Shown: positions 30,952 through 54,813 of the stretch, piece after piece
Position numbering within the stretch: position 1 is the stretch's first letter
How the letters are laid out: each line of letters begins with the position of its first letter
Origin: a virus
IMG/VR virus record: IMGVR_UViG_3300025120_014916
Coordinates: 1 to 64,000 of that record
DNA length: 64,000 bases
Direction: 5' to 3' (one strand)
Notes under the pieces: model-generated
What the model was told of the DNA's origin: nothing
The model's database searches: none
The model's input: the letters and a program-made list of their open reading frames with translations, nothing else
Made by a program: the position numbers and the translations under genes

Positions 30952-31497
30952 CTATTCGCCTCCGCCGTCAAAGCCGGCTTCGATACCACCTTCTATGCCG
31001 GGTTCATAATAATTGTCATGATCTCTGTAGCCATAAAAATAAGGGTATAGCTTTTTTAAATTTCTTTTAGAAGTTTTTTTCTTTTTCTTTTTTTTGTATT
31101 TTTTGTATTTTCTTTCGCTAATAGCAGACCCTTCTTCGTGCATTTCAATGCCATGCTTTTCGTGAAGTTCGTCAATACTATCTGAATCTTTTACTTTTTC
31201 AAGCAATATTGCAGGAATATCAGTCTCAATAGCACCACCAGACCATCTTACGTCATAAAAGTTAATATCACCATTCTCTTTCAATGAATGCCACATCACT
31301 TCACCAACTTCATTTAAGGAAGAACCCTTCTTCCGGACATGAGTCAGTCATGTATGTCCTATAATATCTTTTGCAGCTTGATCCTTATTGCTCACATGAT
31401 TAATGCCGTAAGTAAACCCGTCTTCCTTGCTGACGTAAGAAAGCCTTTCTAGCTCTTCAAATATTAGAGCTCGCAATTTGCTTATTGATAGTTTCAT
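30952..31497 (-). CDS. Hypothetical head-associated protein interrupted by an in-frame UGA at codon 50 (readthrough, nonsense mutation, or two genes)
   Basis: ATG at 31497 gives MKLSISKLRALIFEEL...DIIGHT*LTHVRKKGSSLNEVGEVMWHSL..., in frame with the track's 30952..31299 ORF. Confidence 0.6.
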
Positions 31498-31515
31498 TTT
31501 GTTTTTCTTGCTTGG

Positions 31516-31884
31516 TTAATAATTTCGATCTTCATCCGGATCTCGGGCATTCATTCGAACATATTCCATATAACTGTCATGCTGATCAGGTGCTAAGTCT
31601 TCAGAACTTTGTTCATCATATTCTAAAGGTAGTGCTAATTGCTCAGGTTGAGATTCTATCTGATAGATTTTAGAATATATACTACTTAATTCTGTTTCCA
31701 TCGGGCCGAGATATCCATACGCGTATGCTTCGTTCTCTCCGCCCATATCTAACACATGATCATTCATCTGCTTTGTGAGCATGGCTGCTTTTTCTTTAAG
31801 AGCACGCAATTCATTGCTAGCTTCTGCAATTAAGCTTAGCTCTTCTTTAATGAGTCTTCTTATTGCTTTTCTATTTAATTTCAT
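31516..31884 (-). CDS. Small acidic hypothetical protein with shared N-terminal leader
   Basis: MKLNRKAIRRLIKEEL; AGGAG RBS. Confidence 0.8.
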   Translation of the reverse strand: MKLNRKAIRRLIKEELSLIAEASNELRALKEKAAMLTKQMNDHVLDMGGENEAYAYGYLGPMETELSSIYSKIYQIESQPEQLALPLEYDEQSSEDLAPDQHDSYMEYVRMNARDPDEDRNY

Positions 31885-31905
31885 TTCTTGCTCCTAAAAT
31901 TTAAA

Positions 31906-32304
31906 CTATCTATCGTAGTCGCCGCTCATGATATCTTCACAGCATTCAATGAGCGCAGCTTTTGTTATTTCGCAAGAGCAACATTCAATAAGGCACATAA
32001 CAGCTGCACAGCAGTCTTCACGAGAAACATTGCCCATTGAAGATCCCATCATTGGAGTTGCGTCTGATGTGTGCATTGGAAGAAGTGCATCCATGTCATT
32101 ATCCTTAGGCATGTCATCTTCGTATTCATCACAACCGCAAGGACTCATTCCACATGCGTCACATCCGTGTTTATGACTTCCAACATGTCCTATGTCTTGT
32201 GAGAATGCACCGACTTTTCCGAAAGGTTGCATTCCAGTCATACCGATCATTTTAAATTCTGTAAGAATCATTTTTTGTAGTTGTTTCCGATTTAGTTTTG
32301 ACAT
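31906..32304 (-). CDS. Small Cys-rich protein with shared N-terminal leader
   Basis: MSKLNRKQLQKMILTEF; 12 Cys in two clusters; AGGAG RBS. Confidence 0.8.
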   Translation of the reverse strand: MSKLNRKQLQKMILTEFKMIGMTGMQPFGKVGAFSQDIGHVGSHKHGCDACGMSPCGCDEYEDDMPKDNDMDALLPMHTSDATPMMGSSMGNVSREDCCAAVMCLIECCSCEITKAALIECCEDIMSGDYDR

Positions 32305-32391
32305 CTCTGTGCTCCTGTAAAGTTTACCTTATTAAATATACCTGTGCGAACGTAAATGATCATAGATTTTAACCTCGTTTGCAGAAAACAT

Positions 32392-32420
32392 AAAAAAAGA
32401 CACCCACAAGGGGTGTCTTT
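32392..32420 (-). terminator. Rho-independent terminator
   Basis: AAAGACACCC-CTTGT-GGGTGTCTTT followed by TTTT. Confidence 0.88.
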
Positions 32421-32469
32421 AAAATATTATTAGACTAACTAATTTATACTTTTTAAGAGCTTATTGTAT

Positions 32470-33288: not shown

Positions 33289-33325
33289 AATTTTCTCCTA
33301 TTTTTTAGATTTGTTTTAGAGTTTA

Positions 33326-35711: not shown

Positions 35712-37661
35712 TTAGATAATTTCCATATCTAAACATGTAACTGTTCCGTAGAAGTCGGCACGAACCATTTTCTTTCCGTAACGAGTCATAACACCTTTTC
35801 TTGGGGTGAAATCCTCTGGAGCGAAGATGGTAGGTGTAACAATCAATGGTACGTAAGGAGCATAGACGTATCCAGACTCTAAGTAAGAACCACCTTTATA
35901 TCCAACAAGAATCTTGTTACGTGGGAAGTAAGGATCTTTATAAACAGTAAATCTGTTAGTAAGTGATCCAATAGCTTCAGCACCAAGACTGAATGGGGCA
36001 GCAACTTGACCTTGACCATCAATTTTAATTGAAGGCTTGTAAAGTACAGAAGCTTCGAAGATTGTCGCGACTTCAGGGGAAACTACGATGAAGTTTGCAC
36101 TTCCACGAAGAGTCTTTCTGTGAATCTCATTAGCAACGTCGATAATGGTCTCAACAAGAGTCTCATACCATTCGCGAACTGTACCAGTAAAAGTCGGACT
36201 CATTGACAAAGAAGAAGCTAATTCTTGAATTGCCCCTGTTCTTTTGTTAACAAATCTACCTGGCGCACGTGACCAAAAGAAGTTTGCACCTTTTGCTTCA
36301 ACCAAGAGGTCATTAAGAATCTCACGATCGATTTCTAATGCAATCTGCTCTGAAAGAATCTGAGTCAATTCAACTTCAGCGTCCAAAGAGTGATAAGCAT
36401 TAAGATCTTGTGCAAGTTCTGGGGACCAACGAGCTCTTAACTTACGTGTTTGAGCTGTTACCGCAATAGATTCGATCTTAATGTCGATCTCGGGTATGAT
36501 TGGTGTAGGATCAGATCCGGAGAAGCTAGACTCAAAGCTTGGAATTGTAACAACACCACCTGTACCACCCTCGGCAGTTAGACCGTCAGCTTTAGGGTAA
36601 GCTACAATTGTAATGCCACCGGTGAATAATGCATCAGCTGAGGTACTAACAGTACCAGGACAAACAAACAGCACGTCCACAGCAGCCGAATCGGCTGATG
36701 TTCTTTGAGTCCATGTTGATCCATCCCAAGATCCTAATTGATTAAGTCTACGTACGTTTAATACGTTCGTACCTTGCTGAATAGTAGATTTAACTTTAGT
36801 AATACCACCGGAACTAGTTCCTCCAGCTGAATCAAGCAGTGATACACCTTTAACAAGTGTTTTGTCAAAGCTAGTTAGCTTTGATATATCTGCAATTACA
36901 AAGTGATAATTTGTGCTGTTATCAACAATATCAGCAATAATTTGCGGATCATGTTGCAATAGCGCCAAGTTTTTACTATTTGTAGTTTCAATCTGATTAC
37001 CAATCGCAAAAACACCAGTTGTTGCATGGTATGCACCAGCAGCTGTTGCGTGTGCTGCAGCAATTTGTCCAGCAGCATGACCGGAGATTGCGTGTCCTGA
37101 ACCAGTAACATATGCTTTTGAATATGTTGAACCAGCTAAGTCATACATACCGCCGATTGCGTCAGCACCTGACTGAATACTGTTTCCACTTGGTGAGCCA
37201 TAAAGTGAGTTACCTTTTTCAAAAGTAGCTGCTGTATTTCCTGTTAAAGCTGCGTTTCCGAGTGTACTTCCTGCAGAACCGGCATCTTCACCACCTACTT
37301 GACTTCCATAAGAATAGTCTAAGTAGAAAAGAAGTCCACTTGGAAGACTCATTGGCTGAATAGATACTAGTTCATTAGCAACTAAACCACCAAATACACG
37401 GCGTACAATTGGAAATGCGATGTTACTAAAACCATCGATTGCGCCTGCGCCACCAGATCCGTTACCCATTGTGTTAGCTTCTCTAAGTACTTGAGCAGCT
37501 TGATTTTCAAGCAAACGAGCCATATTCTCGCGCTTGGTTTCTTGAAGGCCACGTAACAATCCTGTTCGTGTCCATTTGTTCATAAGTCGGCTACCGTCTT
37601 GACCCACGTTTCTATCGCGGATGCCCTCGGTAAGTTGACCTAATGTAAATTCTCTAGACAT
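35712..37661 (-). CDS. Major capsid protein, T4 gp23-like, with a large insertion
   Basis: LLENQ, FPIVRRVFGGLVANELVSIQPMSLPSGLLFYL, IESIAVTAQTRKLRARWSPELAQDLNAYHSLDAEVELT, YAPYVPL, FTPRKGVMTRYG. Confidence 0.96.
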   Translation of the reverse strand: MSREFTLGQLTEGIRDRNVGQDGSRLMNKWTRTGLLRGLQETKRENMARLLENQAAQVLREANTMGNGSGGAGAIDGFSNIAFPIVRRVFGGLVANELVSIQPMSLPSGLLFYLDYSYGSQVGGEDAGSAGSTLGNAALTGNTAATFEKGNSLYGSPSGNSIQSGADAIGGMYDLAGSTYSKAYVTGSGHAISGHAAGQIAAAHATAAGAYHATTGVFAIGNQIETTNSKNLALLQHDPQIIADIVDNSTNYHFVIADISKLTSFDKTLVKGVSLLDSAGGTSSGGITKVKSTIQQGTNVLNVRRLNQLGSWDGSTWTQRTSADSAAVDVLFVCPGTVSTSADALFTGGITIVAYPKADGLTAEGGTGGVVTIPSFESSFSGSDPTPIIPEIDIKIESIAVTAQTRKLRARWSPELAQDLNAYHSLDAEVELTQILSEQIALEIDREILNDLLVEAKGANFFWSRAPGRFVNKRTGAIQELASSLSMSPTFTGTVREWYETLVETIIDVANEIHRKTLRGSANFIVVSPEVATIFEASVLYKPSIKIDGQGQVAAPFSLGAEAIGSLTNRFTVYKDPYFPRNKILVGYKGGSYLESGYVYAPYVPLIVTPTIFAPEDFTPRKGVMTRYGKKMVRADFYGTVTCLDMEII

Positions 37662-37694: not shown

Positions 37695-39185
37695 TTATTT
37701 TTTAAGTCCCGCAAGTTTTTGCCAGCGTCCAAGATCACTAGAACCTTGTGCCTTTCTTGAGCTAGCTGACGTAGTAGTGCGGGATGAACTACCGTATCTC
37801 ACTGATTCATTAATTGTACCTTTCCTACTTGAAGAAAGAGATTCAGTTAATGACTTATATAATGCTTTAGTTTCGCTAAGTGAGTTTGCTTCGTCAAGAG
37901 CCTTGATTACAGATTTTTTCTGAGATTCATTAAGTGACTTATTCTGAAGTAGCTTATTCACATAAAGTAATTTAGCATTAAATAAATTGAGATCTTCCAA
38001 CTGTTCACGAAGAGTATTAATAGCTCCTCTGTATTTATTCAGTTTCTCAGACTGAGCTCGATTTGTACGTCTCAGATTTCGAATTGCTTCGTTTAATTTG
38101 TTAATTTGTGGTGGATTGACGAAAGGATCTTGGCCTTCTTTGCCGCCGCCAAATGCTGATTTAACACCTGCGTTCTTCTTTCCTTTTCCGCCATATGATC
38201 CATCGACGCCTGCCTTAGCACCGCCGTTACCACCAAAGTGATGATCCATTTTTCCTTCACGGAGTTGTCTTTTAACTCGAGCTAATTCTTGACGAAGCAT
38301 GCGAGGATCGATATCAAAGGTTTCGTTTAAAGCAGCTTCATCTTCTGCATCTTCACCTTCTTCATCAAACATCCCTTCTAGATCTGGTAATTCTGGAGCA
38401 TCTTCACCTTCTTCGTCTTCTTCACCTTCTTCTTCACCTAGTTCTAACGCGTCTTCTGCATCTTCACCTTCTTCTTCTTCTTCGGCCATGCCTTTAAGAA
38501 TTTCTGGTAGGTTATCAATTTCGATATCATCGCCTAAATCAAGAACAAGACGAATTTCATTCATCAGTGCGTCCATGTCATCTTCTTCCATAGGCTCATC
38601 TGCTTCATATGCATCATCCATTTCTTCCATAGAATCATTATCCATTTCATCCATATCACTCATTTCTTTTTCAATGGATTCTCTTAGTGCTTGAAGATCA
38701 ACTTCATAAAATTTTTCGCGGTTTGACATTTCTGTTTTCTCCTGATTTAAATCAATGTTATTATTTATATTGCGCGATTCTAAAATATCTGCTTTTTTGT
38801 TAAATTTATTTGCAATTTGCTGCAATTTTCTTCTGTTAGAACTTGAAAGACCACCAAGTGTCTTCTCAACAGATTCTTGAACCACACTTGAAGAAGATGA
38901 AAGATCAAATTCAGAAAGTATTTCTTCGCCTCCAACAAGATTAATTAAAGCTTTAAGAGCAGATTCATCCAAGACAACCTCTTCTTTTTCTTCAATATCT
39001 TCTTTTTCAGCGTCTAGTTCGTTTTTATTAGTGTCTTCTTCGTCGCCTTCTATTAATTGAGCTTCGATGAATTCTCTAATTCTAGGTGTAACTGCTTCTA
39101 ATATTGCCTTTTTGGCATTATCTTCAGCAACTTCGCGAAGCTTTTTAGCATCGGCAATTGCTTCTTCAAAAAGTTTGCTTGACAT
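37695..39185 (-). CDS. Prohead core / scaffolding protein (gp22-like)
   Basis: Very acidic low-complexity centre, C-terminal coiled coil LNLFNAKLLYVNKL, many L/I-x-E sites, directly upstream of the capsid gene. Confidence 0.85.
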   Translation of the reverse strand: MSSKLFEEAIADAKKLREVAEDNAKKAILEAVTPRIREFIEAQLIEGDEEDTNKNELDAEKEDIEEKEEVVLDESALKALINLVGGEEILSEFDLSSSSSVVQESVEKTLGGLSSSNRRKLQQIANKFNKKADILESRNINNNIDLNQEKTEMSNREKFYEVDLQALRESIEKEMSDMDEMDNDSMEEMDDAYEADEPMEEDDMDALMNEIRLVLDLGDDIEIDNLPEILKGMAEEEEEGEDAEDALELGEEEGEEDEEGEDAPELPDLEGMFDEEGEDAEDEAALNETFDIDPRMLRQELARVKRQLREGKMDHHFGGNGGAKAGVDGSYGGKGKKNAGVKSAFGGGKEGQDPFVNPPQINKLNEAIRNLRRTNRAQSEKLNKYRGAINTLREQLEDLNLFNAKLLYVNKLLQNKSLNESQKKSVIKALDEANSLSETKALYKSLTESLSSSRKGTINESVRYGSSSRTTTSASSRKAQGSSDLGRWQKLAGLKK

Positions 39186-39809: not shown

Positions 39810-39811
39810 GT

Positions 39812-40337: not shown

Positions 40338-40574
40338 TTATAACCTCTTTAATAGTTTTTGTTTAAGAGTATTTTTTACTGCTTCTATTTTTTTTAAATC
40401 AGATCTTTTTTTTGTTTTTGATTCGTTAAGAAGTTTAATAACTTTTAAATACGATTCAATAATTCTTTTATTTGATAATTTACTTTTTCTATTTTGCAAC
40501 TTTCTAAGTTTAAATTTTTCTTCTGCAATTATTCTTTTAAGCGTTGCAGGTGTTAGTTTTCTTACTCTTTTCAT
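40338..40574 (-). CDS. Small basic protein with shared N-terminal leader
   Basis: KLTPATLKRIIAEE; very Lys/Arg-rich; AGGAG RBS. Confidence 0.75.
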   Translation of the reverse strand: MKRVRKLTPATLKRIIAEEKFKLRKLQNRKSKLSNKRIIESYLKVIKLLNESKTKKRSDLKKIEAVKNTLKQKLLKRL

Positions 40575-40667: not shown

Positions 40668-41138
40668 TTATCCAAACGCTAAAGATGCCCATTTTGAAGA
40701 AGCTTCTTCCCCAAACAATTTCTCAGGACTATTACTCTCTACCATTCGCTGCGCAGTATCACCAGAACCTGTGGGTGTAAAACCTTTTTTACTATCTGCT
40801 GCTAATTGATCCTGGAGGGTTGTATGTGCTGTATCAGCCAACATTTCTGCAAGTACAGGATCGTTAGTAATATTTGAAGCTAACTCATCTAGCCTTTTGT
40901 TCTTTTTTATATTCTTACTGACTTCACTGTCATTGTCAATGTTATCTAAGTATTTGGGCGTTTTTGATCTTCTGCTATACTTGCTTTCTGAAACAGACAT
41001 CGCTTCTTTGAGTGTTCTGGCTTTTTTTGCGCTCGAACGCGATGTCTTGGCTTCAGAATTCAAACCTTCAGCTAAGATTTCTATTAAGCATTCTTTAACA
41101 ATACCTTTTATAACGTTTTTGGTTAATTTATCTGCCAT
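40668..41138 (-). CDS. Hypothetical head-module protein with shared N-terminal leader
   Basis: MADKLTKNVIKGIVKECLIEILAEG. ATG at 41138 overlaps the protease stop (TAATG). Confidence 0.78.
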   Translation of the reverse strand: MADKLTKNVIKGIVKECLIEILAEGLNSEAKTSRSSAKKARTLKEAMSVSESKYSRRSKTPKYLDNIDNDSEVSKNIKKNKRLDELASNITNDPVLAEMLADTAHTTLQDQLAADSKKGFTPTGSGDTAQRMVESNSPEKLFGEEASSKWASLAFG

Positions 41139-41743
41139 TAGTCTTCCCACCTTAATATGTCATTAAACATTCTATTTATTCTATCTGATTTGTTAAAAGA
41201 TTTGTTAAGCTCAGAATTTGATATTTTCTTACCTTCACTCATCATAAAAGCACCTGGGGTGCTAGGTTCGGAAACCATGTCAAAGCAGATTAATTGAAAA
41301 TCTTCTTGAACTATTTGTGTATCGCCTTGGCTTTGTGTAGAACCTACGCCACGTGATGAGATGCCTAGTGTTACGCCACTCTCAATAAGTGACTGTATAA
41401 TTTTACCGCTAGGCGTATCAAGTAACTCTATGACACCGTAGACGTTGTCACCTTGCATCCTAGCTTCTTTTACTACGTGCGAAACATTTTTAAGTTCAAC
41501 AACAGATGATTCTGGGTGGTCACATTCGCCCAGTGCTCTATTTTCTTGAATGAGTTTTTGATAATTAATCACTTCCCGTTCTAAAATTGTTCTGGGGTAT
41601 ATTCTGCCATTTTGATTAAGTGTATTAGCTCTTTGTATAATGCCTTTTAGTAATACCTTTCCGTATTTTTCTTTTGATTCTTTAAGCATCTGCTTGTCAA
41701 TACTAATTGGACACCATTCTGTTAATAATTTTCTATCTGTCAT
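41138..41743 (-). CDS. Prohead maturation protease, T4 gp21-like
   Basis: NQNGRIYPR, RALGECDHP (catalytic His), LGISSRGVGS (catalytic Ser), DMVSEPSTPGAF. Confidence 0.95.
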   Translation of the reverse strand: MTDRKLLTEWCPISIDKQMLKESKEKYGKVLLKGIIQRANTLNQNGRIYPRTILEREVINYQKLIQENRALGECDHPESSVVELKNVSHVVKEARMQGDNVYGVIELLDTPSGKIIQSLIESGVTLGISSRGVGSTQSQGDTQIVQEDFQLICFDMVSEPSTPGAFMMSEGKKISNSELNKSFNKSDRINRMFNDILRWED

Positions 41744-41745: not shown

Positions 41746-42603
41746 TTATTCCCCTAAACTAATTTCTTCAACTAATTTTGTTAAAGTTAAAAACTTACTT
41801 ATCGTACCATCATTAAGCACTTCGACATCTAGATTTATAATTTTATTTTTAACAAGATCGATCTTTTTTGATAAATATGAATTTTCATTTATTGTGCCAA
41901 AACTTTTTAATGATTTTAGTGATATTTGTTTTTGTGTGTTCAAATATTTTTTAAGCTTTTCATGCTTGTCACTATCATTACTATATAATGCGTATTTTTG
42001 CAATATTTCTCTCTGTGATGATGAAAAATCTGTATATTTTTTATTTATTTTTTCCATCATTATTTTTTCAACAAGAACATCAGAATTAGTTTCACTAGCT
42101 GAAGTATTTAAAATATCTAGACTTGAGTCTGATTTTTCTTTAATAAGATGATTTAGCGCGCTTTGCTCTAAAATTACCATCTTTTTCAAATCAGATGTAT
42201 CTCCTTTTTGCCATTCTTGAATCATATTGTGAATATTTGCCAACTCTCTGTACTCTGGGATTGATCGATAATAAAACGATCTATCTTTAATACTATAGTT
42301 AATGTCTCTAATCAACATTGATTTTTCTTTTTCAATTTTATTTCTATTAAATCTTCTAGCTGCGTTTTTTGCTTCTGTTAGAATTGCCGCGGCTATTTCT
42401 GTATTTTGAACTGTTGTCTTTGCCAATGCATTAAAAAGACGAAACTCTTTATACAATTCTGTATCTTTACTAAAACGTTTTTCTATAATTCTGGTTGCAG
42501 ATAATGCACCCTTTCTATCATTTTCAATTAATTTGGTAGATATATGCCTTAACAGTAGTTCGTACATTATACCTATGTTTCTTTTTTTATTATGCTTTGT
42601 CAT
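41746..42603 (-). CDS. Hypothetical protein between portal and protease (prohead core position)
   Basis: 285-aa helical ORF overlapping the portal stop. Confidence 0.75.
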   Translation of the reverse strand: MTKHNKKRNIGIMYELLLRHISTKLIENDRKGALSATRIIEKRFSKDTELYKEFRLFNALAKTTVQNTEIAAAILTEAKNAARRFNRNKIEKEKSMLIRDINYSIKDRSFYYRSIPEYRELANIHNMIQEWQKGDTSDLKKMVILEQSALNHLIKEKSDSSLDILNTSASETNSDVLVEKIMMEKINKKYTDFSSSQREILQKYALYSNDSDKHEKLKKYLNTQKQISLKSLKSFGTINENSYLSKKIDLVKNKIINLDVEVLNDGTISKFLTLTKLVEEISLGE

Positions 42604-44605
42604 CGTCTTCCCCTGATGAATTGTTCTCAGAGATTATACTTTGCTTTAGTGATTTACCAAACTTACCATCAAACCTCTTAAGTGTTGATTCTAACCTTGA
42701 TGTCATTTTAGCGTTTTGTATTATCTTACTATCTAAGTATTCACTAATATCCCATTCTTCTTCATTTAACATCGTATCTTTTGCTAAATTTCTCACTGGG
42801 TTAATTAATGCTTTCATGTCTGACATATGTCGAGGCATTCCAGAAGCGTCAAATTTTCCTTTATTACCCTTATAAGACATTATGTCTTCAGTACCGGCAT
42901 CCTCTTTATGTTTTGCTTTTTTTCTTTTTGTTTTATAATCTTGCTGTGCTTTCTTTTGCCATGATTCAAATTCTGTTAGTTTGAATTCTTCTTTATCTTC
43001 TTCATTGATCATTGCAGCATTATTTATCATGTTTTGTACCCTAATAGGGGCATTTTCATCTGATATGGAAAGTTTATTTTCTTCAGAAAGACCCGGTATA
43101 TCCGGTCCCGGGCCTATTCCGCCTAAATCAAGCCCGGGCAATTGAGGGCCACCATCGCCTATCGTATCTGGTGGCCCTAGCTCAGGACCTTCAGGCGCTT
43201 GCAATTGAGTTCCTTCAATTTCTAAATCTCCGATCTTGTCAGAAACCAATCCCGATCTGATAGCTTTAACTTCTTCATCATTAAGTCTTAATATATTTTT
43301 TTGAACCCATTTTCTATCAACTATACCTGGAACTTGTAATGCTGAACCGGCGACTTCAAATCTAGTTCTAAAAAGCTCAAGTTTTTGTTGTTGTGCTATT
43401 GTAGAAGGATTAGAAAGTCTAAGTTCAAAATCTAGAAGATCTTCGTCAGTAAAACCCTGGCAATAAAGGTGAACTATCGCAATTTTGTTCATTTCTGAAA
43501 GTATTGTTCTTTGTATTCTTGCTATGGTTCTACTAAATCTTATGTCTTCTTGGGATAACGTCGCCTTTGCCCCTAAGCCTTCATCATAGCCTAAATAAGC
43601 TTTAGGTATTTTAAGAGCAGAAAATAATTTCTTTTGAATATACTCAACATCATTTGTTTCACCGGCCATAGTTCCGCCGCCCAAGGTATCTATCGCAGTT
43701 CCCGAATCAGCGCCTCTAACAGGAATAAAATAGTCCTCGTCAACTGAAAGCGGATTATATCTTAGATCAACCTTACCGGTTGTCTTGTCGACAACCTGTG
43801 AACGTTTAAGACTGCTTTGAGCCTGTTCCATGTAGTTTTGTACATCTTCTGGAGGGACGTTACCAACGTCAATTTTAAAAACTCTTCTTTCTGGCGCTCT
43901 GACTATTCTATATACTAGCATCGCGTCTTCTAATAAAATTAATTGTCGCCAAATTCTTCTAGCAGGTTCTAATACTGAAGAACCGTATGGCAAGAATGCA
44001 TCGTTACCTAAAAGTCGCATATGAGAAATTTGCCAGTTTTCTAATATCTGATTACCTTGTGTTACCCATCTAAACCTAACTGCCATCGGATCGTTAGTAT
44101 CAAACCCTTCTTCTCTTTCTAGCTCTGCTATGGGTAGCGGATATGCGTTTATTACACCGTACTTGGGATGTACATCATTAAATAAGAAAAAGTCACCATA
44201 TTTTACTAAATTTCTTACCCATGAAGTCATATTAAATTCAATATTTAGTGTATCATAAAACAATTCGTTTAAGATCTCTTTGATTTTTGAATTTTCTGAG
44301 TATATATGAAGTGTCTTGCCGTTTTCGTCTGCTGCTACTGATTCTTCTGCGTAGATGTCTAAAGCACTCGCGATTTCCGGTGTGTACTCCATTTCTGAAA
44401 AGTCTGCATATCTGGCCATTCTGTCATACGCACCGTATGCAGACATAGCAGCACTGTATACCTGACTCTGGTTTTTTCTAAAAGTTTCAAACGCTGTTGA
44501 TGTTTTGTTATCAATTGGTTTTAAAACATTTCTTTTGACCACCGGTCCGGACCTAAATAGTCGAGTAAGTCTACCAAATAAACTTCCTTGTTGCTTGTCT
44601 GCCAT
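42590..44605 (-). CDS. Portal protein, T4 gp20-like, with C-terminal extension
   Basis: MEYTPEIASALDIYAEE, PYGSSVLEPARRIW, EDAMLVYRIVRAPERRVFKIDVGN, EDYFIPVRG, ALKIPKAYL, QEDIRFSRTI. Confidence 0.96.
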   Translation of the reverse strand: MADKQQGSLFGRLTRLFRSGPVVKRNVLKPIDNKTSTAFETFRKNQSQVYSAAMSAYGAYDRMARYADFSEMEYTPEIASALDIYAEESVAADENGKTLHIYSENSKIKEILNELFYDTLNIEFNMTSWVRNLVKYGDFFLFNDVHPKYGVINAYPLPIAELEREEGFDTNDPMAVRFRWVTQGNQILENWQISHMRLLGNDAFLPYGSSVLEPARRIWRQLILLEDAMLVYRIVRAPERRVFKIDVGNVPPEDVQNYMEQAQSSLKRSQVVDKTTGKVDLRYNPLSVDEDYFIPVRGADSGTAIDTLGGGTMAGETNDVEYIQKKLFSALKIPKAYLGYDEGLGAKATLSQEDIRFSRTIARIQRTILSEMNKIAIVHLYCQGFTDEDLLDFELRLSNPSTIAQQQKLELFRTRFEVAGSALQVPGIVDRKWVQKNILRLNDEEVKAIRSGLVSDKIGDLEIEGTQLQAPEGPELGPPDTIGDGGPQLPGLDLGGIGPGPDIPGLSEENKLSISDENAPIRVQNMINNAAMINEEDKEEFKLTEFESWQKKAQQDYKTKRKKAKHKEDAGTEDIMSYKGNKGKFDASGMPRHMSDMKALINPVRNLAKDTMLNEEEWDISEYLDSKIIQNAKMTSRLESTLKRFDGKFGKSLKQSIISENNSSGEDDDKA

Positions 44606-46622: not shown

Positions 46623-46885
46623 TTTTTCTCCTCAGGGTTTAACTGACATTTTCTATTATAAATATGCGTTTCTAGAGTTTCTTTATCAGGTCGCCACCCT
46701 TCTTTCCATTCTTTTTTTCTTGCTTCTATAAAAGTTAAGTAACAATCATTACAAGAACCGTCATAATCTTTTGAACTTTTAAAGTCTAATAAAGATGTTA
46801 ATGTAAACTTGCACAACGAACAGAAAAAATATTCATTACTTTGAGATAGTGAATCTTTAAAAATAACTTTATGGTTGATATACAT
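46619..46885 (-). CDS. Small CxxC...CxxC Zn-binding protein
   Basis: FCSLC...SCNDCY...WKEGWRP; ATGA overlap with the next gene. Confidence 0.72.
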   Translation of the reverse strand: MYINHKVIFKDSLSQSNEYFFCSLCKFTLTSLLDFKSSKDYDGSCNDCYLTFIEARKKEWKEGWRPDKETLETHIYNRKCQLNPEEKK

Positions 46886-49800
46886 GTGAATCTACTCCTT
46901 CTTTTATTATTTCTATTGTATTGTCTACAATATCTTTAATCGCATCAATATGAGAAATAATTATAATGTTTTTAAATAATTTTTTAAACGATGTTAGTAG
47001 TTTACTACAAGATTCTAGATTTGTTTCATCTAGCGCACCAAAACCTTCATCAATTATCAGCATGTTTGTCTTAGGAAGCGTTGAGACATTAATCAATGCA
47101 ACCCTTATCGCCAACGATGCCATCATTTTTTCCATACCTGATGCTAATTCAACAATTCTTCTGCTATCACCGTAGTTTATATAGATATCCATAGCATTAC
47201 TTTTTAAATCTGCTTCTAACTCTATAGTGAATCCGACAACGCCTTGTAAGATTTTTGATATCTCTGCATTAATTTTTGGTAATAGTGAGTATAGAAGCTG
47301 AACTGGAATTCCTCTTTTTGAGGTTGCTTGAATAAACATGTCATAAAGTTTAAGATCTTTATTTATTTTCTGATAATCCTCTAAATTCTTTTTGTAGAGA
47401 TCTCTTTTTGCGCGCCATGATGCAGTTTGACTTATCGCAGTGTCTCTTTTAGAATTAATTTGTTTTCTTTCTCTTTCAAGCTGACTGATGCGATTATGTA
47501 TTTCTTGAAACTCGCTCGAGTCTTGCGAATTAAAAAGTACTAATGTGTTTTTGTAATCTTGTTCTGCAGTGTTTAGCTGTCTTTTTAAGTTAACTATAGT
47601 TTGAATTGCTCTTTCAATTTTAATCTTTCTTTCAGATATTTCATCTACAAATTTTGACTTTTTGCTTAGAATTGTATTGTATTGTTCTATTTTCTTTTCG
47701 TAATCTTCTGATAGATTATTTAATTCGTTATCTATGTCATCAACTTTTACAGATAGAAAAGTTACTTTTTCTTCTTGATTGTCAAGTTTTTGCTTATTTC
47801 TATGTGAATTCTTAATGAATTTGCATGTTGGGAAACTGTCGCCACAAGGTACTTGATCTAGTATTTTTACAGATTTAGATATGTTATCTAATTCTTTCCT
47901 CTCAAGTTTTAAATTTCCTTTGAGTTCAATCAAAGATTGCCTGATTTTTCTTTTTGCGTCCCTCTTCTTTTTTATATCTTTTAAATTAAAATTGACTAAA
48001 AAGTTTTCAATCTTTTTAATTTTTGCTGTTTGCTCACTAATAGATTCAACTAGTTCAAACTTTTTATTTTCTAAAATTGATATATCGTTTTTTATCTTTA
48101 TGCAGCTAGCTTCCTTCTTATCAACAGTAGACTGCGGCATGTATTCTATTTCTTCGCTTATGCTCGTTTTCATTTCTTTTATTGTTGATTCAACTTCTTC
48201 TAGCTTGTTTTCACACGAAACCTTTACTAATAAGTGTTCATCAATCTTGCTTAAGCAGTGATTGTATTTATCTTCCCAGTTATCTGATGACAATACATTG
48301 ATTTTACTTCTTAAAGGACTGCACTCTTTTTTTGCCAATTCTGACATTTTATCGAAAACTTCCAAGTCTAAAAAGTTTGATAGGATATTTTTTCTAGCAG
48401 CCGCCTTTTCTTTAATAAAATTATTTATCTCTCCCTGTGAAGCTAAACTTGTCATTAAAAATTCTTCACTGGTGCCTATTGTCTTTCTAAGTATTTTTTC
48501 TGTTTCTCTTCTTTGTTCATCTGTTAAATCCTCTATAATATCTCCCGATCCGTTAAGTCTATAAAACTTTAAAGAGGTAGGTGCCCAAATATCTTTCTTT
48601 GTCTGCTTTTTAATTGTTTCTCTAGATATTCTATAAGGTATTCCTGCTACGCTTATGTCTATGTCTGCTGAACAGCTACTAAATCTTGTGTTGATTATGT
48701 GTAGATTTTTTATAGAGCCACGATCTGATGCATTAAAAAGTCCGTATACTAGACTTCCAATAACAGAAGACTTTCCGCGTGCATTTCTTCCAAATATACC
48801 AGTAATACCCGGCAAATTATCAAAATTAATATAGTTACCTTTACCGTATGAAAAGGTACTATCAAATTTCATGGAGTTGATGGTCCAATTGGAATTTCTA
48901 TTGTCTTCACCAGATTTTGATATTGTGTCAATATATTGGCTAGTCATTAAATTTAACTTTTCCCACTGATGATCATCTAAGTCATGACTGTCATAATAAG
49001 CTTTGATTAATTCAATTTGAACGTTTGAGTCTCTTAGATTTAATGCCTTATCATTTGTTTGATCGACTAGATTTTTTTCAGAATCAAACTTTGTCTCTAT
49101 CTTAAAAACAACTTCTTTTGCGTTATGACTCTTTTTTAACTGTTTTCTCAGTCTTTTAGCATCTGCTTGGGATATAAAATTATCAGCGCGTATTCTAAAT
49201 CTAGATTGGCGCGGATGATATTTGCATTCTATTAGCGTTGTCTTTATATCGCCTTGCCAGTCAACAGTTATGAAAGGATGAATATTTTTTACAGGTATGT
49301 ATTTAACATCAAAGTCGTTTCGGCCTCTTATGTCCCAAAACAAAAAACCCTTATCTGGCGTTTCGCCATAATTTTGCTGAATCGTACTTCCACAATACGC
49401 AACAGTTTTGTGTTTATCTAGAAACTGTCGCTTATGTATGTCTCCTAGTAATGCAAAATCATAATTTTTAAAAAACCCTAAGTTAACTTCGCCGCCTAAT
49501 TGCCAATCAATGTCTGTTAGTGATCCTCGCACGGAGCCATGAAACAATGCGATATTTATATCAGAAGGATCAGGTTTTAGATCGACCCAGTTTTCTTCAT
49601 CAAAACATGAAAAGACGCACCATTTAAAACCTGGATGACCCGTATCATATATACCTGTATCCTTTAAAAGAAATATGTTAGGATTGTCTATAGCGTTTAT
49701 GATTGGTGTGATTGCGTCTTGTCGATCTTTGTTTAATATGAGTCCGTCATGATTGCCTAATATTACATGAACTGGGCATATTGATGCCATCTTATTAAAC

Positions 49801-49991
49801 CACCAACAGAGACTCTGTATTAGCTCTGGTGATATTCCTTGTGTTTTACTATGTACAATATCACCCCCAATGTATATTACGTCAGGTTTGCAATCTCGTG
49901 CTTTTTTAAAAAAATCATTAAATGCTAATATGTACTCTTCATGCCTAGATAGTCCGCGCCAGTGGACGTCTGCAATATGAATAATCTTCAT
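46869..49991 (-). CDS. Fused SbcD(Mre11)-SbcC(Rad50) nuclease-ATPase
   Basis: N-terminal metallophosphoesterase (HIADVH, GGDIVH, LGNHD, FHG, LGDIH), then Walker A GRNARGKS, coiled coil, ASGME signature, IIDEG and ISH, all in one ORF. Confidence 0.92.
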   Translation of the reverse strand: MKIIHIADVHWRGLSRHEEYILAFNDFFKKARDCKPDVIYIGGDIVHSKTQGISPELIQSLCWWFNKMASICPVHVILGNHDGLILNKDRQDAITPIINAIDNPNIFLLKDTGIYDTGHPGFKWCVFSCFDEENWVDLKPDPSDINIALFHGSVRGSLTDIDWQLGGEVNLGFFKNYDFALLGDIHKRQFLDKHKTVAYCGSTIQQNYGETPDKGFLFWDIRGRNDFDVKYIPVKNIHPFITVDWQGDIKTTLIECKYHPRQSRFRIRADNFISQADAKRLRKQLKKSHNAKEVVFKIETKFDSEKNLVDQTNDKALNLRDSNVQIELIKAYYDSHDLDDHQWEKLNLMTSQYIDTISKSGEDNRNSNWTINSMKFDSTFSYGKGNYINFDNLPGITGIFGRNARGKSSVIGSLVYGLFNASDRGSIKNLHIINTRFSSCSADIDISVAGIPYRISRETIKKQTKKDIWAPTSLKFYRLNGSGDIIEDLTDEQRRETEKILRKTIGTSEEFLMTSLASQGEINNFIKEKAAARKNILSNFLDLEVFDKMSELAKKECSPLRSKINVLSSDNWEDKYNHCLSKIDEHLLVKVSCENKLEEVESTIKEMKTSISEEIEYMPQSTVDKKEASCIKIKNDISILENKKFELVESISEQTAKIKKIENFLVNFNLKDIKKKRDAKRKIRQSLIELKGNLKLERKELDNISKSVKILDQVPCGDSFPTCKFIKNSHRNKQKLDNQEEKVTFLSVKVDDIDNELNNLSEDYEKKIEQYNTILSKKSKFVDEISERKIKIERAIQTIVNLKRQLNTAEQDYKNTLVLFNSQDSSEFQEIHNRISQLERERKQINSKRDTAISQTASWRAKRDLYKKNLEDYQKINKDLKLYDMFIQATSKRGIPVQLLYSLLPKINAEISKILQGVVGFTIELEADLKSNAMDIYINYGDSRRIVELASGMEKMMASLAIRVALINVSTLPKTNMLIIDEGFGALDETNLESCSKLLTSFKKLFKNIIIISHIDAIKDIVDNTIEIIKEGVDSHVYQP

Positions 49992-50004: not shown

Positions 50005-51264
50005 TTAACTCATCTTCACAATAGAATCTCTTTTTTCTTTTGTGAAGTGAAGTTCGTATCCTGGTAATAATACCCAGCATCTTTTAGAAATACAAGTTTT
50101 TGGTTTAGGGGCACAACCATCTGTCATTACAATGCAACCGTCAAACTCAGATGATCTAGATCGAAAGTGATCTTCAACGCAATTAAAACATGTACCACCT
50201 GTTAATGTTCTCATAGGATTTCTATATTTCTGACCTTTTCTCCATGCGTACTCTGAGCCTTTATCAACTGTTGTATCAAAATGAAAGACCTTAAATGATA
50301 CGTTTTTTGCTAGTCCTTCTAAGGCTGAAAAAAACATTGCAATGCCATCATCGCCAACAGATCCGGATTGATCTATGTATATCGCAAGACTGGACGTCCT
50401 TCTTACTCTTGTCCCAGGATGAATATAAGGATATTTTCTATTTATTTTTCTAAAAGTTCTAGATTTTTTTGACTTTTGTTTAGTTCCACAAAAGTACTGG
50501 AGCGTTTTTTTCCAATCAATAACGGTGTCAAACATTAACGATATATCATCTTTTACCAATGTTGAACATGATCCCCAGCCATTCGATCTTGTATTTGCTT
50601 TATTTGCTGATCTCTTTATAATATCTTTAAGTTTTCCTTTCATAATTTCAATATCAGAATCTGTTAATGATCCGTCACCATCTAGATGCACATCAAAACC
50701 TGATGATGTTCCATCACCATATGCTTCTTGAAAAGCGCTTGAGACTTCTTTGTCTTCCTTAAGCTTTTCCATGTACCACTCTGAAGCCTTGCACTTTGGA
50801 AGATCAGCTAAAAACTTAGACATTTTTTTATTTCTTTTAATTATTTCTTCGGGCAAGTCTGACACACTTTTTTCGCTTAACGGTTTTCCCGGAATCAAAC
50901 CACCATCTGGTAGATAGTTTTCTGAAATAAGTGAATTAATTGCGAGATCTGTTGCTATATTCCAAAGTGTGTGTGGATCTTGCTTTCTAGCTACTACGTG
51001 TTGGTATATCAAGTGGTAACATTCATGTTTCATAAGTCCATAAAATTTAAGCTTGGGTAAGCTCGAAACAAAGTCAGGATTCCAATAAAGTGCAAAAGAG
51101 TTGTCTTTTACTGTAACACCCGCAGTCGGAATGTCATACGTCTTTATTTTCTTTAAATTCATAACTATTGATGCAAAAAATGGTTCTTCAAGTAAAAAAT
51201 CAACCATTAATTTATCAAATTTTCTGTCTGTTATCGTATGACCGTTAAATTCTTTAATTTCCAT
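50005..51264 (-). CDS. Putative metallopeptidase-vWA protein (DUF2201-like)
   Basis: HECYH...WNIATDLAIN; C-terminal MIDAS DQSGS, GGT and TDG. Confidence 0.85.
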   Translation of the reverse strand: MEIKEFNGHTITDRKFDKLMVDFLLEEPFFASIVMNLKKIKTYDIPTAGVTVKDNSFALYWNPDFVSSLPKLKFYGLMKHECYHLIYQHVVARKQDPHTLWNIATDLAINSLISENYLPDGGLIPGKPLSEKSVSDLPEEIIKRNKKMSKFLADLPKCKASEWYMEKLKEDKEVSSAFQEAYGDGTSSGFDVHLDGDGSLTDSDIEIMKGKLKDIIKRSANKANTRSNGWGSCSTLVKDDISLMFDTVIDWKKTLQYFCGTKQKSKKSRTFRKINRKYPYIHPGTRVRRTSSLAIYIDQSGSVGDDGIAMFFSALEGLAKNVSFKVFHFDTTVDKGSEYAWRKGQKYRNPMRTLTGGTCFNCVEDHFRSRSSEFDGCIVMTDGCAPKPKTCISKRCWVLLPGYELHFTKEKRDSIVKMS

Positions 51265-51290
51265 TATTTCTCCTTTATGTTTATAATACT

Positions 51291-51319
51291 ATTATAACGT
51301 ATTATGCATACCGTTACAT
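51291..51319 (-). promoter_or_regulatory. Sigma70-like promoter, atypical -35
   Basis: ATGTAA-N17-TATAAT. Confidence 0.5.
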
Positions 51320-51349
51320 GCGTTAACAATTACTGCATATGCATAATAC
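51299..51349. repeat. 12-bp perfect inverted repeat with a 27-bp spacer
   Basis: GTATTATGCATA (51299-51310) and TATGCATAATAC (51338-51349). Confidence 0.85.
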
Positions 51350-51364
51350 ATGCTTATAAAACTA

Positions 51365-52432
51365 TTATTTCATTTCCGGACTGGCTTTGACTATTTTTGT
51401 TACTAGCGTTCCAAAATGTCTATGAAAATTCTTTATCAAATTAAGAATTTTTGTTTCCATAATCAAGTTAAAGAAATTGACAATCATTTCATCCGGACAT
51501 GCTTTAACATAATCTGAAATATTTTTAACTTGCTTAAGTGTAATGGTTTCGTGATTGGCATCAAGATATAACATGATTTTTTCAATTAAATCATTTTTCT
51601 TATCTTCGTTTAACATTGTCATTATGTCGTCTTTTACTTCACCATAACGATCTGCTACATCTTCAGCGCTAAAGCTTCTTGTATAGTCTTGCAAAAATCC
51701 AATAAACTTAGTTGTTGCAGAACTTCCAATAAATCCTAAACTTAGAGGAAATAAAAGTGCCGGCATTGATTTGTTTCCAGCATAATGATTAGGATTTAAA
51801 TTAGCGTGAATGAGTGTTTCACATAATCTATGCCATGACGCAGGATTTGGATATACTTTCCCCGGTTCCATTTCACCAGTATGACGCAAAAAATTTGAAT
51901 GCGTTTTTATAAATTCTTGCACAACAGAAGGAATATCGTCTCTGCTATACGCCCAGTCTAACCAGTCGTCTACAGTAGGCTCTAAGTCTATAGTCCAAAA
52001 TCTACGCAATAGTGCTGGATCCATATCTAGAACTTGGTATTCACTGCCTTCGTTAACTGCTGCATAAACACGTGTCTCTGGGTGCAATTTATGGCCGTTA
52101 AGCTCTCTATCTAAAACGATCTGGAATGCGCATTGTTGTACTTCCAAAGTTGCTCTGTTAAGCTCATCAAAAAATAGTACAACAGGCTCTTTACATGCCC
52201 TTACATACCAGTTTACCGGTGCAAAGCGCGTAACGCCATCAACCAATTCCGGAAGGCCTATAATATCACCTTCAGTCATTTGTGCTAGACGTCTATCGAT
52301 AACCGGCATATTAAGCGCTTTACCGACACTATGAACAATGTGTGATTTTCCAATACCTGTTGGGCCTTTTGCCAAAATAGAAATATGTGCAGGTAGGTTT
52401 GATGCTGACTTGATGAATGTTTTGATATCCAT
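51365..52432 (-). CDS. MoxR/dynein-related AAA+ ATPase
   Basis: GPTGIGKS, LFFDELNR, AAVN, DPALLRRF, PNPASW. Confidence 0.9.
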   Translation of the reverse strand: MDIKTFIKSASNLPAHISILAKGPTGIGKSHIVHSVGKALNMPVIDRRLAQMTEGDIIGLPELVDGVTRFAPVNWYVRACKEPVVLFFDELNRATLEVQQCAFQIVLDRELNGHKLHPETRVYAAVNEGSEYQVLDMDPALLRRFWTIDLEPTVDDWLDWAYSRDDIPSVVQEFIKTHSNFLRHTGEMEPGKVYPNPASWHRLCETLIHANLNPNHYAGNKSMPALLFPLSLGFIGSSATTKFIGFLQDYTRSFSAEDVADRYGEVKDDIMTMLNEDKKNDLIEKIMLYLDANHETITLKQVKNISDYVKACPDEMIVNFFNLIMETKILNLIKNFHRHFGTLVTKIVKASPEMK

Positions 52433-52468
52433 GTTTTTCTCCTTGATTGTTATTTTGTTTGCTTTATT

Positions 52469-52497
52469 ATTATATTTGGTTTTTGTTTTGATTGCAC
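52469..52497 (-). promoter_or_regulatory. Sigma70-like promoter, atypical -35
   Basis: GTGCAA-N17-TATAAT. Confidence 0.5.
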
Positions 52498-52502
52498 GAT
52501 TT

Positions 52503-52931
52503 TCATCTAACGGGTTTTAATGTTTTTGGGTAATACCAGTTATTACCGGAGGAAGTAACAACATATACTTGACCCGAATAGCTATCTAGATTTTTTTTCA
52601 TATCATGAGCGTGATTTTGATTTAATTCTATGTTTACTGCATTGTTGTTAACTATAATACCGATTTCACCATTTGGTAAGTATACTAACTCACCTTCTAA
52701 ATAGTTCCAGCTTACTTTAGGCTTAGGCTTGTTAATTTCTTTCTTGCGATCATATATTTCAGACCGGTCCTTCCTGGTAAAGCCTAACTTGTCTTTTTTC
52801 TCTTTAGACTCAATAACTTTTTCTTCATACATGTCAGGATTTTTGTCTTTCAGCGCTTCAAGTTCTAGTTGCCTTTTTTCTTTAGCTTGCTCTCTGGCTT
52901 TTTTTATTTGGGATCTAGATAATTTTGCCAT
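52503..52931 (-). CDS. Hypothetical protein, charged N-terminus and possible SH3-like C-terminus
   Basis: 142-aa ORF; EGELVYLPNGEIGIIV...GQVYVVTS pattern. Confidence 0.7.
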   Translation of the reverse strand: MAKLSRSQIKKAREQAKEKRQLELEALKDKNPDMYEEKVIESKEKKDKLGFTRKDRSEIYDRKKEINKPKPKVSWNYLEGELVYLPNGEIGIIVNNNAVNIELNQNHAHDMKKNLDSYSGQVYVVTSSGNNWYYPKTLKPVR

Positions 52932-52963
52932 GGCTGTACCTTTTGTTTAATTGTTATGTTTAT

Positions 52964-52992
52964 ATTATATACCAATTATAAGGTGATTGCAT
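52964..52992 (-). promoter_or_regulatory. Sigma70-like promoter, atypical -35
   Basis: ATGCAA-N17-TATAAT. Confidence 0.5.
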
Positions 52993-53008
52993 GAAAATTA
53001 CAAGTATA

Positions 53009-54274
53009 CTATCTTAAAGCATCAAAGTACAAGTTTAATTTATCTATATAGTTATGACCTATTATTTTATTGACCCTTTCAAAGTTATAATTCATGTCTT
53101 TGCAAAGAATTGTTCTGCCAATCCTTCCATTACCATCAGAAAATGGATGTATATGCTCAAAATATGCGTGTCTCATGAATGGGTTTGAAGAATCTAGCGC
53201 GCAAAAATATTGTAGTTCATTGTAAATTTTATTAGTATCTATATATTTGTGACCGGTCGGGGAATTATGTTCAAAGTTTCGAAATTCCCCAGGTTTACCT
53301 CTTGTAAGACACTCAGGAAACATCTGGTTGTGCAAAGCAACAATATTAAAAGGGCTTTCAATATCATTAAACTTATATGAATATACTAGTGGTGCTATTA
53401 AAGTTTTTAAAAAAACACTATCAGTAACATATTCGAGAGGATACCCGCTATAAACTTTTGATGCCGCATTAATGCATTCTTGATATGGTACATTAAAGTT
53501 TTCTTTTTGATTAGACTTGTGAAGAAATGTGGCTAATGCAGTAATTGAATTATCTAGATTGTTTGACTTTTTTATCAAGAAGTTTGCAAAGCTTTTGTGA
53601 TCAGCTTTTTTTAACTTTTCAAAATTATAATTTTTATCTTGTGTTCCTGCAATAAATATTGCAGATAACATTTGGCCTATTATTTTGCCTGATGATATAT
53701 CAGTCGGGTAGTGTTTTCCGTTTTCTATTCTTGACTGGCCAATTAACTCTGCCAACATTTCCAAATCAGGCATCAATTCAGGATAAGAATCTCCAAGAAT
53801 GCCAGCTATAAAATAAGCTATACATGTATGTCCGGACGGAAAAGAAGGCGAAGATGATTCCTTAATTGACTCATAAATACTTCCCTCATCAACCAGGTAT
53901 GTTTTTGGTCGGGGCCGCTTGTGGGTGTACTTAAGTCTAAGAATGATTGTGTCTACATCTTTTAGAATATTTTTTATTTTTTTCCAATCAGGATTTAAAC
54001 TCATTTCTTCACAAAATACATTAAAACAATCTTCAACGGAACTGTCAGAAAGATTTAAAAAGCCGTCATCAAGACTAGGATTACTATAATAAAACTTTAC
54101 TGCGTCTAGATCTCTTTGATGCTCTATAGAGAAAACATCGGGACATGTTAATCGAGGTAGATTTTTTTCACTGTCTATAATAAACTTGCAATCTCTAGCA
54201 ATTCTTTTCTTAAATTTCTTAGGTACAACATTGTCGTCCTTAGTAAGATCAAATAGAGATTGTATCGAATTCAT
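53009..54274 (-). CDS. PAP2-family phosphatase fused to a Fic domain
   Basis: KYTHKRPRP (Kx6RP), FPSGH and SRIENGKHYPTD (SRx5Hx3D); C-terminal HPFSDGNGRIGR. Confidence 0.9.
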   Translation of the reverse strand: MNSIQSLFDLTKDDNVVPKKFKKRIARDCKFIIDSEKNLPRLTCPDVFSIEHQRDLDAVKFYYSNPSLDDGFLNLSDSSVEDCFNVFCEEMSLNPDWKKIKNILKDVDTIILRLKYTHKRPRPKTYLVDEGSIYESIKESSSPSFPSGHTCIAYFIAGILGDSYPELMPDLEMLAELIGQSRIENGKHYPTDISSGKIIGQMLSAIFIAGTQDKNYNFEKLKKADHKSFANFLIKKSNNLDNSITALATFLHKSNQKENFNVPYQECINAASKVYSGYPLEYVTDSVFLKTLIAPLVYSYKFNDIESPFNIVALHNQMFPECLTRGKPGEFRNFEHNSPTGHKYIDTNKIYNELQYFCALDSSNPFMRHAYFEHIHPFSDGNGRIGRTILCKDMNYNFERVNKIIGHNYIDKLNLYFDALR

Positions 54275-54813
54275 TACAGATCGCCTTCAAATTTATCGTA
54301 GTCAAGCGAGTGATACACTTCTGATATATCATCAGATATTTGTGCTATTTTAGTTCTTTGCCAATCATCTAGCTCGTAACCATCAGGAATCATTCCTAAA
54401 AGCTTTTGTGCGTATTTTGCAACTTTATAAAGTGAAGGCTTTGCCATGTAATTGTTGGATTTAATTTCGTGACTGTTAGCGTCGTTAAAACTAATCTGTG
54501 TTGATTTTGCGCCTACATCAAACAAATCATACATTGCATCTATAGAATTGTCTGTGCTATTATTAGAAGATCCTCCGCAACCGCAGTCACCCTCAGTCAA
54601 ACTAGATATTTCATACATGCTACCGCATTGTTCGCAAACTGATTCACCTTCATACATTGCTGACCCACACTCTGTACATGATCTTTTATTCTGCATGCTT
54701 CTATACAAATCTTGTCGACCCGGGTCATCAAAGCCTGATTGTAATGCGTCTTCTTTGATTTTATTTATTTCTTGAATTATAAGCTTTCTAATTATGCTTC
54801 TTTTTAGCTTCAT
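54274..54813 (-). CDS. Zn-ribbon protein with shared N-terminal leader
   Basis: MKLKRSIIRKLIIQEI; CTECG...CEQCG; stop overlaps the PAP2-Fic start (TAATG). Confidence 0.8.
   Translation of the reverse strand: MKLKRSIIRKLIIQEINKIKEDALQSGFDDPGRQDLYRSMQNKRSCTECGSAMYEGESVCEQCGSMYEISSLTEGDCGCGGSSNNSTDNSIDAMYDLFDVGAKSTQISFNDANSHEIKSNNYMAKPSLYKVAKYAQKLLGMIPDGYELDDWQRTKIAQISDDISEVYHSLDYDKFEGDL

Follow-up and report, generated by a model that had tools for sequence, protein, structure and literature searches.

Why should proteins that have nothing else in common begin alike? The question is raised by a 64,000-nucleotide stretch of DNA from an uncultured marine giant phage (the window), the first 64 kb of the 136,409-bp IMG/VR virus record IMGVR_UViG_3300025120_014916. 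A preliminary description of the window had pointed out a common N-terminal leader on six genes, named here by their upper coordinates (31497, 31884, 32304, 40574, 41138, and 54813), and we found all six N-termini as described, on the minus strand, where almost all genes of the record lie. We propose that this leader, hereafter the tag, is the lineage's longer, basic variant of the capsid-targeting sequence (CTS) of phage T4, a reading that we consider probable on the sequence evidence. A T4-like targeting propeptide cut after a glutamate had already been suggested in the preliminary description, and it proved the best-supported explanation, given a prohead protease of family S77 in the window, a protease-type end on 72 of 75 tags, and 59 clusters of tagged proteins. 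CheckV estimated the completeness of the 136-kb record at about 40%, and the real genome is therefore probably of jumbo size.

The motif given in the preliminary description, K-L-x4-[LI]-x2-[LIM]-[IV]-x-x-[EC], matched seven times in a six-frame translation of the whole record, compared with a mean of 0.37 matches and a maximum of 3 in 300 residue shuffles. All seven matches were on the coding strand, 1 to 7 residues from a start codon, and the seventh belongs to a gene outside the window. A model built from the six leaders found this seventh gene at an E value of 1e-4 and nothing else at E ≤ 10. We also searched 2,380 segments with a profile made from 68 leaders of three relatives and none from this genome (the relatives-only profile), which recovered 6 of the 7 members at E ≤ 0.02, the next match having an E value of 0.49. 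At 8 bits or more, it picked out 11 of 121 N-termini versus 1 of 1,077 internal windows. The bodies behind the tag are unrelated, as had been claimed: BLASTP detected no similarity among the seven, and Pfam and PHROGs searches assigned no family to the tagged proteins of the window, returning only sub-threshold zinc-ribbon matches for 54813.

Divergent leader-like N-termini occur at positions 128898, 129545, 133284, and 134850 of the record, those at 128898 and 134850 scoring lower, and region 128898-135869 presents a run of such starts (MIMLLSENSIRKIIFE, MKINKKRIRSLVRKKILE, MLIERKQLKNIFIKLIIE, and MKIIRKQLNLIIE) around the seventh strict member. We probably see here one margin of a tagged-gene array of the kind found in relatives. 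Counting the divergent leaders, the tagged genes number from 7 to about 11 in this record.

We then looked into the distribution of the tag in relatives. Across 1.23 Mb flanking the protease gene in 80 relatives, the profile gave 76 matches, all of them on the coding strand and N-terminal, either beginning the frame or lying 0 to 6 residues from a Met. Three larger, partial relatives were fetched whole (G002, G003, and G004) and analyzed together with our record by an iterated profile, which revealed 15, 25, and 29 tagged genes in the relatives and 7 here; all matches in the four genomes lay on the coding strand and 75 of 76 at a start codon. The consensus of the family is M-K-[IL]-T-R-R-Q-L-R-K-L-I-x-E. 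The tagged proteins of the four genomes span 49 to 764 residues, are often encoded in arrays that vary from relative to relative, and fall into 59 BLASTP clusters for 75 proteins; none of the 71 submitted to Pfam received a family. A degenerate DNA pattern for the tag retrieved 92 unique open reading frames (ORFs) from IMG/VR, in which the positions left unconstrained also match the consensus, and a Pfam family was found in only 4 of the 83 complete ones (an exonuclease, an HNH nuclease, a LysM protein, and Rep_fac_C). Farther afield, the tag heads seven proteins of the 484-kb uncultured phage LR756508, and a shorter form, MKKSQ, begins two proteins of a cultured phage, Flavobacterium phage immuto, with the gene for one of these lying between the portal and protease genes; the search gave no match in RM378 or in a 595-kb uncultured phage.

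Some proteins carry the tag twice. A second, internal copy follows an acidic spacer in longer homologues of 31497 and in one G004 protein, which fits a cleavage module and suggests polyprotein-like processing. Two-copy proteins were seen at 232230-234401 of G004 (L122) and in the database proteins P0007 and P0011, the copies being separated by an acidic spacer or by a whole domain. As a separate observation, ARAGORN predicted transfer-messenger RNA (tmRNA) genes, with tags ending in ALAA, in G002 (117285-117652), G003 (151825-152161), and G004 (36680-37040) (loci L128, L138, and L112, respectively), each located inside a tagged-gene array or at its margin; no tmRNA was seen by ARAGORN in our partial record.

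The window encodes a T4-type head module (Table 1), in which the matches of the protease, portal, and capsid proteins to PF03420, PF07230, and PF07068 are all above the cut-offs of these families. The capsid protein has a T4-like propeptide, in which, among 57 unique relatives, L-T-E does not vary and both L-L-E and L-R-E show a conservation of at least 90%; a variable Gly/Ser linker and then the conserved mature core follow these sites. The protease itself has L-T-E at residues 7 to 9. In 72 of 75 cases the tag, too, closes with a site of this type, [LIVM]-x-E, whose Glu is motif residue 13 or 14 and is most often followed by Ala or Ser. The phage has no near relative among GenBank phages by megablast. 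Its best capsid matches, 38 to 50% identical, are from Microcystis phage Mel-JY01, the 484-kb uncultured phage, Flavobacterium phage immuto, and Rhodothermus phage RM378, and the 464 protease relatives found in IMG/VR are mostly marine. An insertion of about 250 residues, in which Gly, Ala, Ser, and Thr abound, divides the Pfam match of the capsid protein into two parts, and no second gp23/gp24-like gene was found in the records searched.

A real N-terminal peptide, under selection as a peptide and closed by a protease-type end, co-occurs here with T4-type head genes. From this we infer how the tag might work. It would dock the protein that carries it onto the strongly acidic scaffold core during prohead assembly, and the T4-type S77 prohead protease would then remove it after the Glu of the closing [LIVM]-x-E, leaving the mature protein inside the head. 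The mean charge of the tag (+4.5) and that of the scaffold (-51) suggest that such docking would be electrostatic. The tag alone would be sufficient, and because nothing else would be needed it could have spread to dozens of unrelated, fast-evolving genes. Directly behind the protease gene, in the head-core block, are two of the tagged genes, 41138 and 40574; three (32304, 31884, and 31497) come after the capsid block. The products of the two genes adjoining the protease gene are probably parts of the head core, and others among the tagged proteins are probably internal proteins that would leave with the DNA.

Several results weigh against this proposal. Gene 41138 scored at noise level with the relatives-only profile, and it is the weakest, borderline member. 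In a leave-one-out analysis using this genome alone, only 3 of the 7 members were recovered, and the family is therefore on firm ground only with the relatives included. Most of the mature bodies are acidic, with a median isoelectric point (pI) of 4.8, and 54813 sits among replication-type genes, not head genes. Lastly, a motif as short as [LIVM]-x-E occurs commonly in helices, and most proteins here contain it about two-fold more often than simple expectation.

We considered whether the tag could be a by-product of selection at the DNA or RNA level, namely, a translation-initiation region common to the genes or a short module for recombination by which gene cassettes are shuffled. Tagged genes do form arrays in variable regions, and two motifs are modestly enriched upstream of them in the four genomes: ATATTTAA precedes 7 of 73 tagged genes versus 19 of 708 others (p = 0.007) and ATAATTA precedes 15 of 73 versus 66 of 708 (p = 0.007). 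The preliminary description had placed most of the genes of the window downstream of a late-type motif, which was not borne out, as ATATTTAA lies within 50 nt upstream of only 2 of the 7 genes, is not strand-biased (19 versus 17), and is not generally positioned before genes. The T4 late promoter TATAAATA was tried as well and is not enriched (13 on each strand), and ATATTTAATA is conserved upstream of the four orthologues of 54813. Codon usage argues against a DNA-level origin: the conserved tag residues use many synonyms (six codons for Leu 8 and three, near-equally, for Ile 12), only half of the identical tag residues within this genome have the same codon, and conservation tracks the amino-acid pattern and ends after the Glu. 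The spread of conserved residues over synonymous codons means that it is the peptide, not the DNA, that is under selection, and we hold a nucleic acid-level by-product to be hardly credible. A peptide could still serve a purpose that has nothing to do with the capsid, as a sorting or binding signal such as a Tat-like export signal, a membrane-binding helix, or an arginine-rich RNA-binding peptide. The consensus T-R-R-Q-L-R-K is indeed strongly basic and resembles S/T-R-R-x-F-L-K. However, twin arginines are present in none of the seven leaders of this genome, and a conserved Glu followed by polar or charged residues stands where a hydrophobic h-region would be expected, so that we rejected a Tat signal peptide. 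More generally, the tag is closed by a protease-type site, it is found in phages with T4-type head genes, and its internal second copies would make no sense in an export signal, all of which renders such a signal quite improbable. The amphipathic character attributed to the tag in the preliminary description held up poorly, the hydrophobic moment exceeding that of shuffles in at most 2 of the 7 leaders (p ~0.02 and ~0.07).

The serious rival to a role in loading internal proteins shares its mechanism and differs in the fate assigned to the proteins: most of them would be targeted in the same way but would be extra scaffold or core parts of a very large prohead, to be cut up and expelled during maturation. 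Genes 40574 and 41138 occupy the head-core block as T4 genes 67 and 68 do beside gene 21 (PMC5694885), most bodies are acidic like a scaffold, several tagged proteins are predicted to be largely disordered, and the incomplete 136-kb record points to genomes of jumbo size. On the other hand, 59 unrelated, fast-changing families in arrays that differ between relatives suit conserved structural roles poorly, folded domains exist (for example, the zinc ribbon and conserved C-terminal domain of 54813), HNH, exonuclease, or LysM domains are present in a few of the proteins tagged elsewhere, and [LI]-x-E sites within the tagged bodies are no more enriched than in other proteins. We judge a core role to be unlikely for most tagged proteins and likely for 40574 and 41138; these two, above all, may be core or scaffold parts rather than delivered cargo.

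The individual genes of the window are listed in Table 1. AlphaFold2 models present the tag as a separate N-terminal helix followed by a low-confidence linker. In 54813, this helix covers residues 5 to 18 and precedes a zinc ribbon with four Cys, then a disordered spacer, and finally a conserved helical hairpin at the C-terminus; the protein has 184 homologues, and in the 74 that were aligned the leader is retained and E15 and the four Cys are invariant. The start of 41138 overlaps the stop of the protease gene (TAATG), and its orthologues adjoining the protease gene retain KL[ST][RK]..[IL]K.I[IV]KECL[IV]EIL. Similarly, orthologues of 40574 downstream of the protease gene retain the leader in many relatives.

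TABLE 1 Tagged genes, head genes, and elements of the putative recoding site (positions in the window unless otherwise indicated; E values of leaders are from the relatives-only profile; aa, amino acids)
Feature	Position	Strand	Remarks
Tagged gene 31497, first part	31348..31497	-	49 codons; ends ...DIIGHT, then TGA
Leader of 31497	31456-31497	-	MKLSISKLRALIFE; E 4e-4
In-frame UGA, candidate recoding site	31348..31350	-	Conserved; TGA in 24/24 unique relatives
Candidate readthrough extension	30952..31347	-	131 codons, in frame with 31497
Hairpin	31318..31334	-	17 nt, 7 bp plus GGG/GGA loop, 13 nt past the UGA
Tagged gene 31884	31516..31884	-	122 aa; acidic body, pI 4.6; no Pfam or PHROG family
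Leader of 31884	31843-31884	-	MKLNRKAIRRLIKE; E 2e-6
Tagged gene 32304	31906..32304	-	132 aa; Cys-rich acidic body; orthologues in G002, G003, and G004
Leader of 32304	32257-32304	-	MSKLNRKQLQKMILTE; E 2e-5
Major capsid protein, gp23 family	35712..37661	-	649 aa; Pfam PF07068, E 1.5e-76
Predicted capsid propeptide	37479-37661	-	61 residues, ending L-R-E
Acidic scaffold-like protein	37695..39185	-	496 aa; net charge -51; 21 [LI]-x-E sites; assigned from its place between the protease and capsid genes, as T4 gene 22, and from composition
Tagged gene 40574	40338..40574	-	78 aa; very basic, pI 11.2; in head-core block
Leader of 40574	40521-40574	-	KLTPATLKRIIAE, beginning at residue 6; E 3e-3
Tagged gene 41138	40668..41138	-	156 aa; weakest member; leader MADKLTKNVIKGIVKE, then LIE and LAE
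Prohead protease, Peptidase_S77, T4 gp21 type	41138..41743	-	Pfam PF03420, E 4.5e-27
Portal protein, T4 gp20 family	42590..44605	-	Pfam PF07230, E 7.7e-77
Large terminase	44617-46245		Pfam
Tagged gene 54813	54274..54813	-	179 aa; zinc ribbon; E 0.01
Leader of 54813	54769-54813	-	MKLKRSIIRKLIIQE
Seventh tagged gene	131666-132340 of the record		Outside the window

Several neighbors of 54813 deserve mention. The start of a gene for a 421-aa fusion of a PAP2 phosphatase and a Fic domain (53009-54274, minus strand), with both Pfam families above cut-offs, overlaps the stop of 54813. A single ORF of 1,040 aa (46869-49991, minus strand) combines a Metallophos nuclease (SbcD/Mre11-like) with an SbcC/Rad50-like coiled coil and a Walker B region, and region 50005-52432 (minus strand) encodes a DUF2201 metallopeptidase/VWA-like protein beside a MoxR-type AAA_5 ATPase, both without the tag.

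Gene 31497 raised a question of its own. The poly-Lys body attributed to it in the preliminary description exists in frame, as the next ORF (30952-31299), but the tagged ORF ends at a TGA before it, and the body could be attached to the tag only if this TGA were decoded. Several features of the site point to programmed recoding, either readthrough or insertion of selenocysteine. None of the 24 unique relatives has TAA, TAG, or a sense codon in place of the TGA, and the flanks do not vary, with IIGHT before it and LTHV after it. In G004, G002, and G003, the orthologues (49, 96, and 225 aa, respectively) all end with IIGHT-TGA. Beyond the stop, the extension comprises a small domain predicted as a beta-barrel, followed by a poly-Lys stretch and a tail of Gly and acidic residues. 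The 16 extension codons that precede the first GTG are conserved as protein, the changes being synonymous; the extension of G002 (127 codons) contains no ATG, GTG, or TTG, and in that of G003 the first occurs at codon 96. The hairpin past the UGA is paired in 168 of 168 cells of a 24-sequence alignment, compared to 48 to 65% of cells in slid controls, and two of its pairs show compensatory changes (AU/GC and AU/CG). Relatives of the extension were found with an alignment as query, whereas a single-protein query found none. All 34 database homologues that span the site have W there, and at least one of the 34 (P0023, which is G002) was translated by a TGA=Trp gene call from DNA in which the codon is TGA. 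AlphaFold2 placed the beta domain at residues 53 to 103, with predicted local distance difference test scores of 62 to 77, and a fold search matched generic small SH3/KOW/Tudor-like beta-barrels (Z ~5), which is not specific.

As to the mode of decoding, a genome-wide reassignment of TGA was rejected, since other genes end at TGA and this is the only same-frame pair without a restart. UGA followed by C is a leaky context, and the bacterial selenocysteine insertion sequence (SECIS) is a stem-loop just past the UGA (PMC7026636). The arrangement in 31497 resembles both the Qbeta A1 readthrough site and a bacterial SECIS in its in-frame UGA, the C at +4, and the stem-loop in downstream coding sequence (PMC7026636), and in that one gene would yield a short and a long product. 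It differs from bacterial selenocysteine systems in that none of the 34 proteins spanning the site has Cys there, ARAGORN found neither a selenocysteine nor a suppressor tRNA in the partial phage records, no SelB domain was found in these records, and the hairpin matched no SECIS or other family of Rfam. We rank programmed readthrough somewhat ahead of selenocysteine. Either mode would be predicted to produce a tagged product of 49 residues and a tagged product of about 181 residues, and 31497, with its UGA and hairpin, stands as a clean candidate DNA-phage case of programmed recoding.

Should the tag indeed be a capsid-targeting propeptide, one could read directly from sequence which proteins a large group of uncultured marine giant phages package and possibly inject, the T4 loading system would scale from a handful of proteins to 25 to 30 per genome, and a second, differently charged tag would become available for loading foreign proteins into phage heads. 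A bolder idea, which is possible but which we put forward only tentatively, is that the tag marks a sequence-readable "ejectome", that is, dozens of fast-evolving proteins per genome, packed in the head by this widespread marine jumbo-phage lineage and injected with the DNA, of which the UGA-decoded member could be a selenoprotein. This set would consist of many acidic proteins without known function, to which relatives add a few nucleases and a LysM protein. In T4 and P1, anti-restriction and host-takeover functions are found among packaged proteins of this kind, and the host-takeover and anti-defense effectors of uncultured phages could then be listed from metagenomes by the tag alone.

How close is the tag to known systems? 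The CTS that T4's internal proteins carry was reportedly the subject of a 1996 study by Mullaney and Black. Its sequence, MKTYQEFIAE, is not basic; unaligned, it resembles the tag in the MK start, the Q in the middle, and the I-x-E end. T4 IPII and IPIII are basic, unlike the mostly acidic bodies found here. The CTS of IPI, IPII, IPIII, and Alt is removed by the prohead protease gp21 (PMC9026906; PMC3012670), which cuts after L/I-x-E and itself has LIE-9 (PMC9026906). It corresponds to the first 10 residues of IPIII, where the N-terminal part targets and residues 8 and 10 govern processing, and it is all that the diverse internal proteins of T-even phages have in common (PMC9026906; PMC3012670; PMC5694885). 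The tag is likewise a short putative propeptide at the extreme N-terminus of unrelated proteins, ends with a hydrophobic-x-Glu as in the gp21 site, and is the only conserved part of fast-evolving genes. Its genome encodes gp21 (S77), gp20, gp23, and an acidic scaffold, the head-core genes beside the protease gene are tagged too, and the protease has LTE-9 where gp21 has LIE-9. The shorter MKKSQ...I-x-E form of phage immuto looks intermediate between the tag and the T4 CTS. The differences lie in the length of the tag (13 to 14 residues versus 10), in its strongly basic character, in the mostly acidic mature bodies, in the second internal copy of some proteins, and in the number of tagged proteins, with 15 to 29 per larger partial genome and 59 clusters in four genomes versus a handful in T4.

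The other system to compare is that of the phiKZ-like giant phages, in which the proteases gp175 of phiKZ and gp245 of SPN3US act on inner-body and ejection proteins with long propeptides (PMC5694885). In these giant phages, too, a diverged protease of gp21 type cleaves many head proteins after Glu, the propeptides have been proposed to target proteins into the prohead, and paralogues have identical N-termini (PMC5694885). However, the propeptides mostly exceed 100 residues and share no common short consensus, and the cleavage site is S/A-x-E or A-x-E (PMC5694885), whereas the tag described here is short and uniform, with a hydrophobic P3 residue at its putative site as in T4. As far as sequences can tell, all of the defining features of the T4 CTS are present, namely, the N-terminal position, the short length with an L/I-x-E end, a genome with a gp21-type protease, and unrelated bodies; what is new relative to T4 is the length and charge of the tag, the scale on which it is used, and its internal copies.

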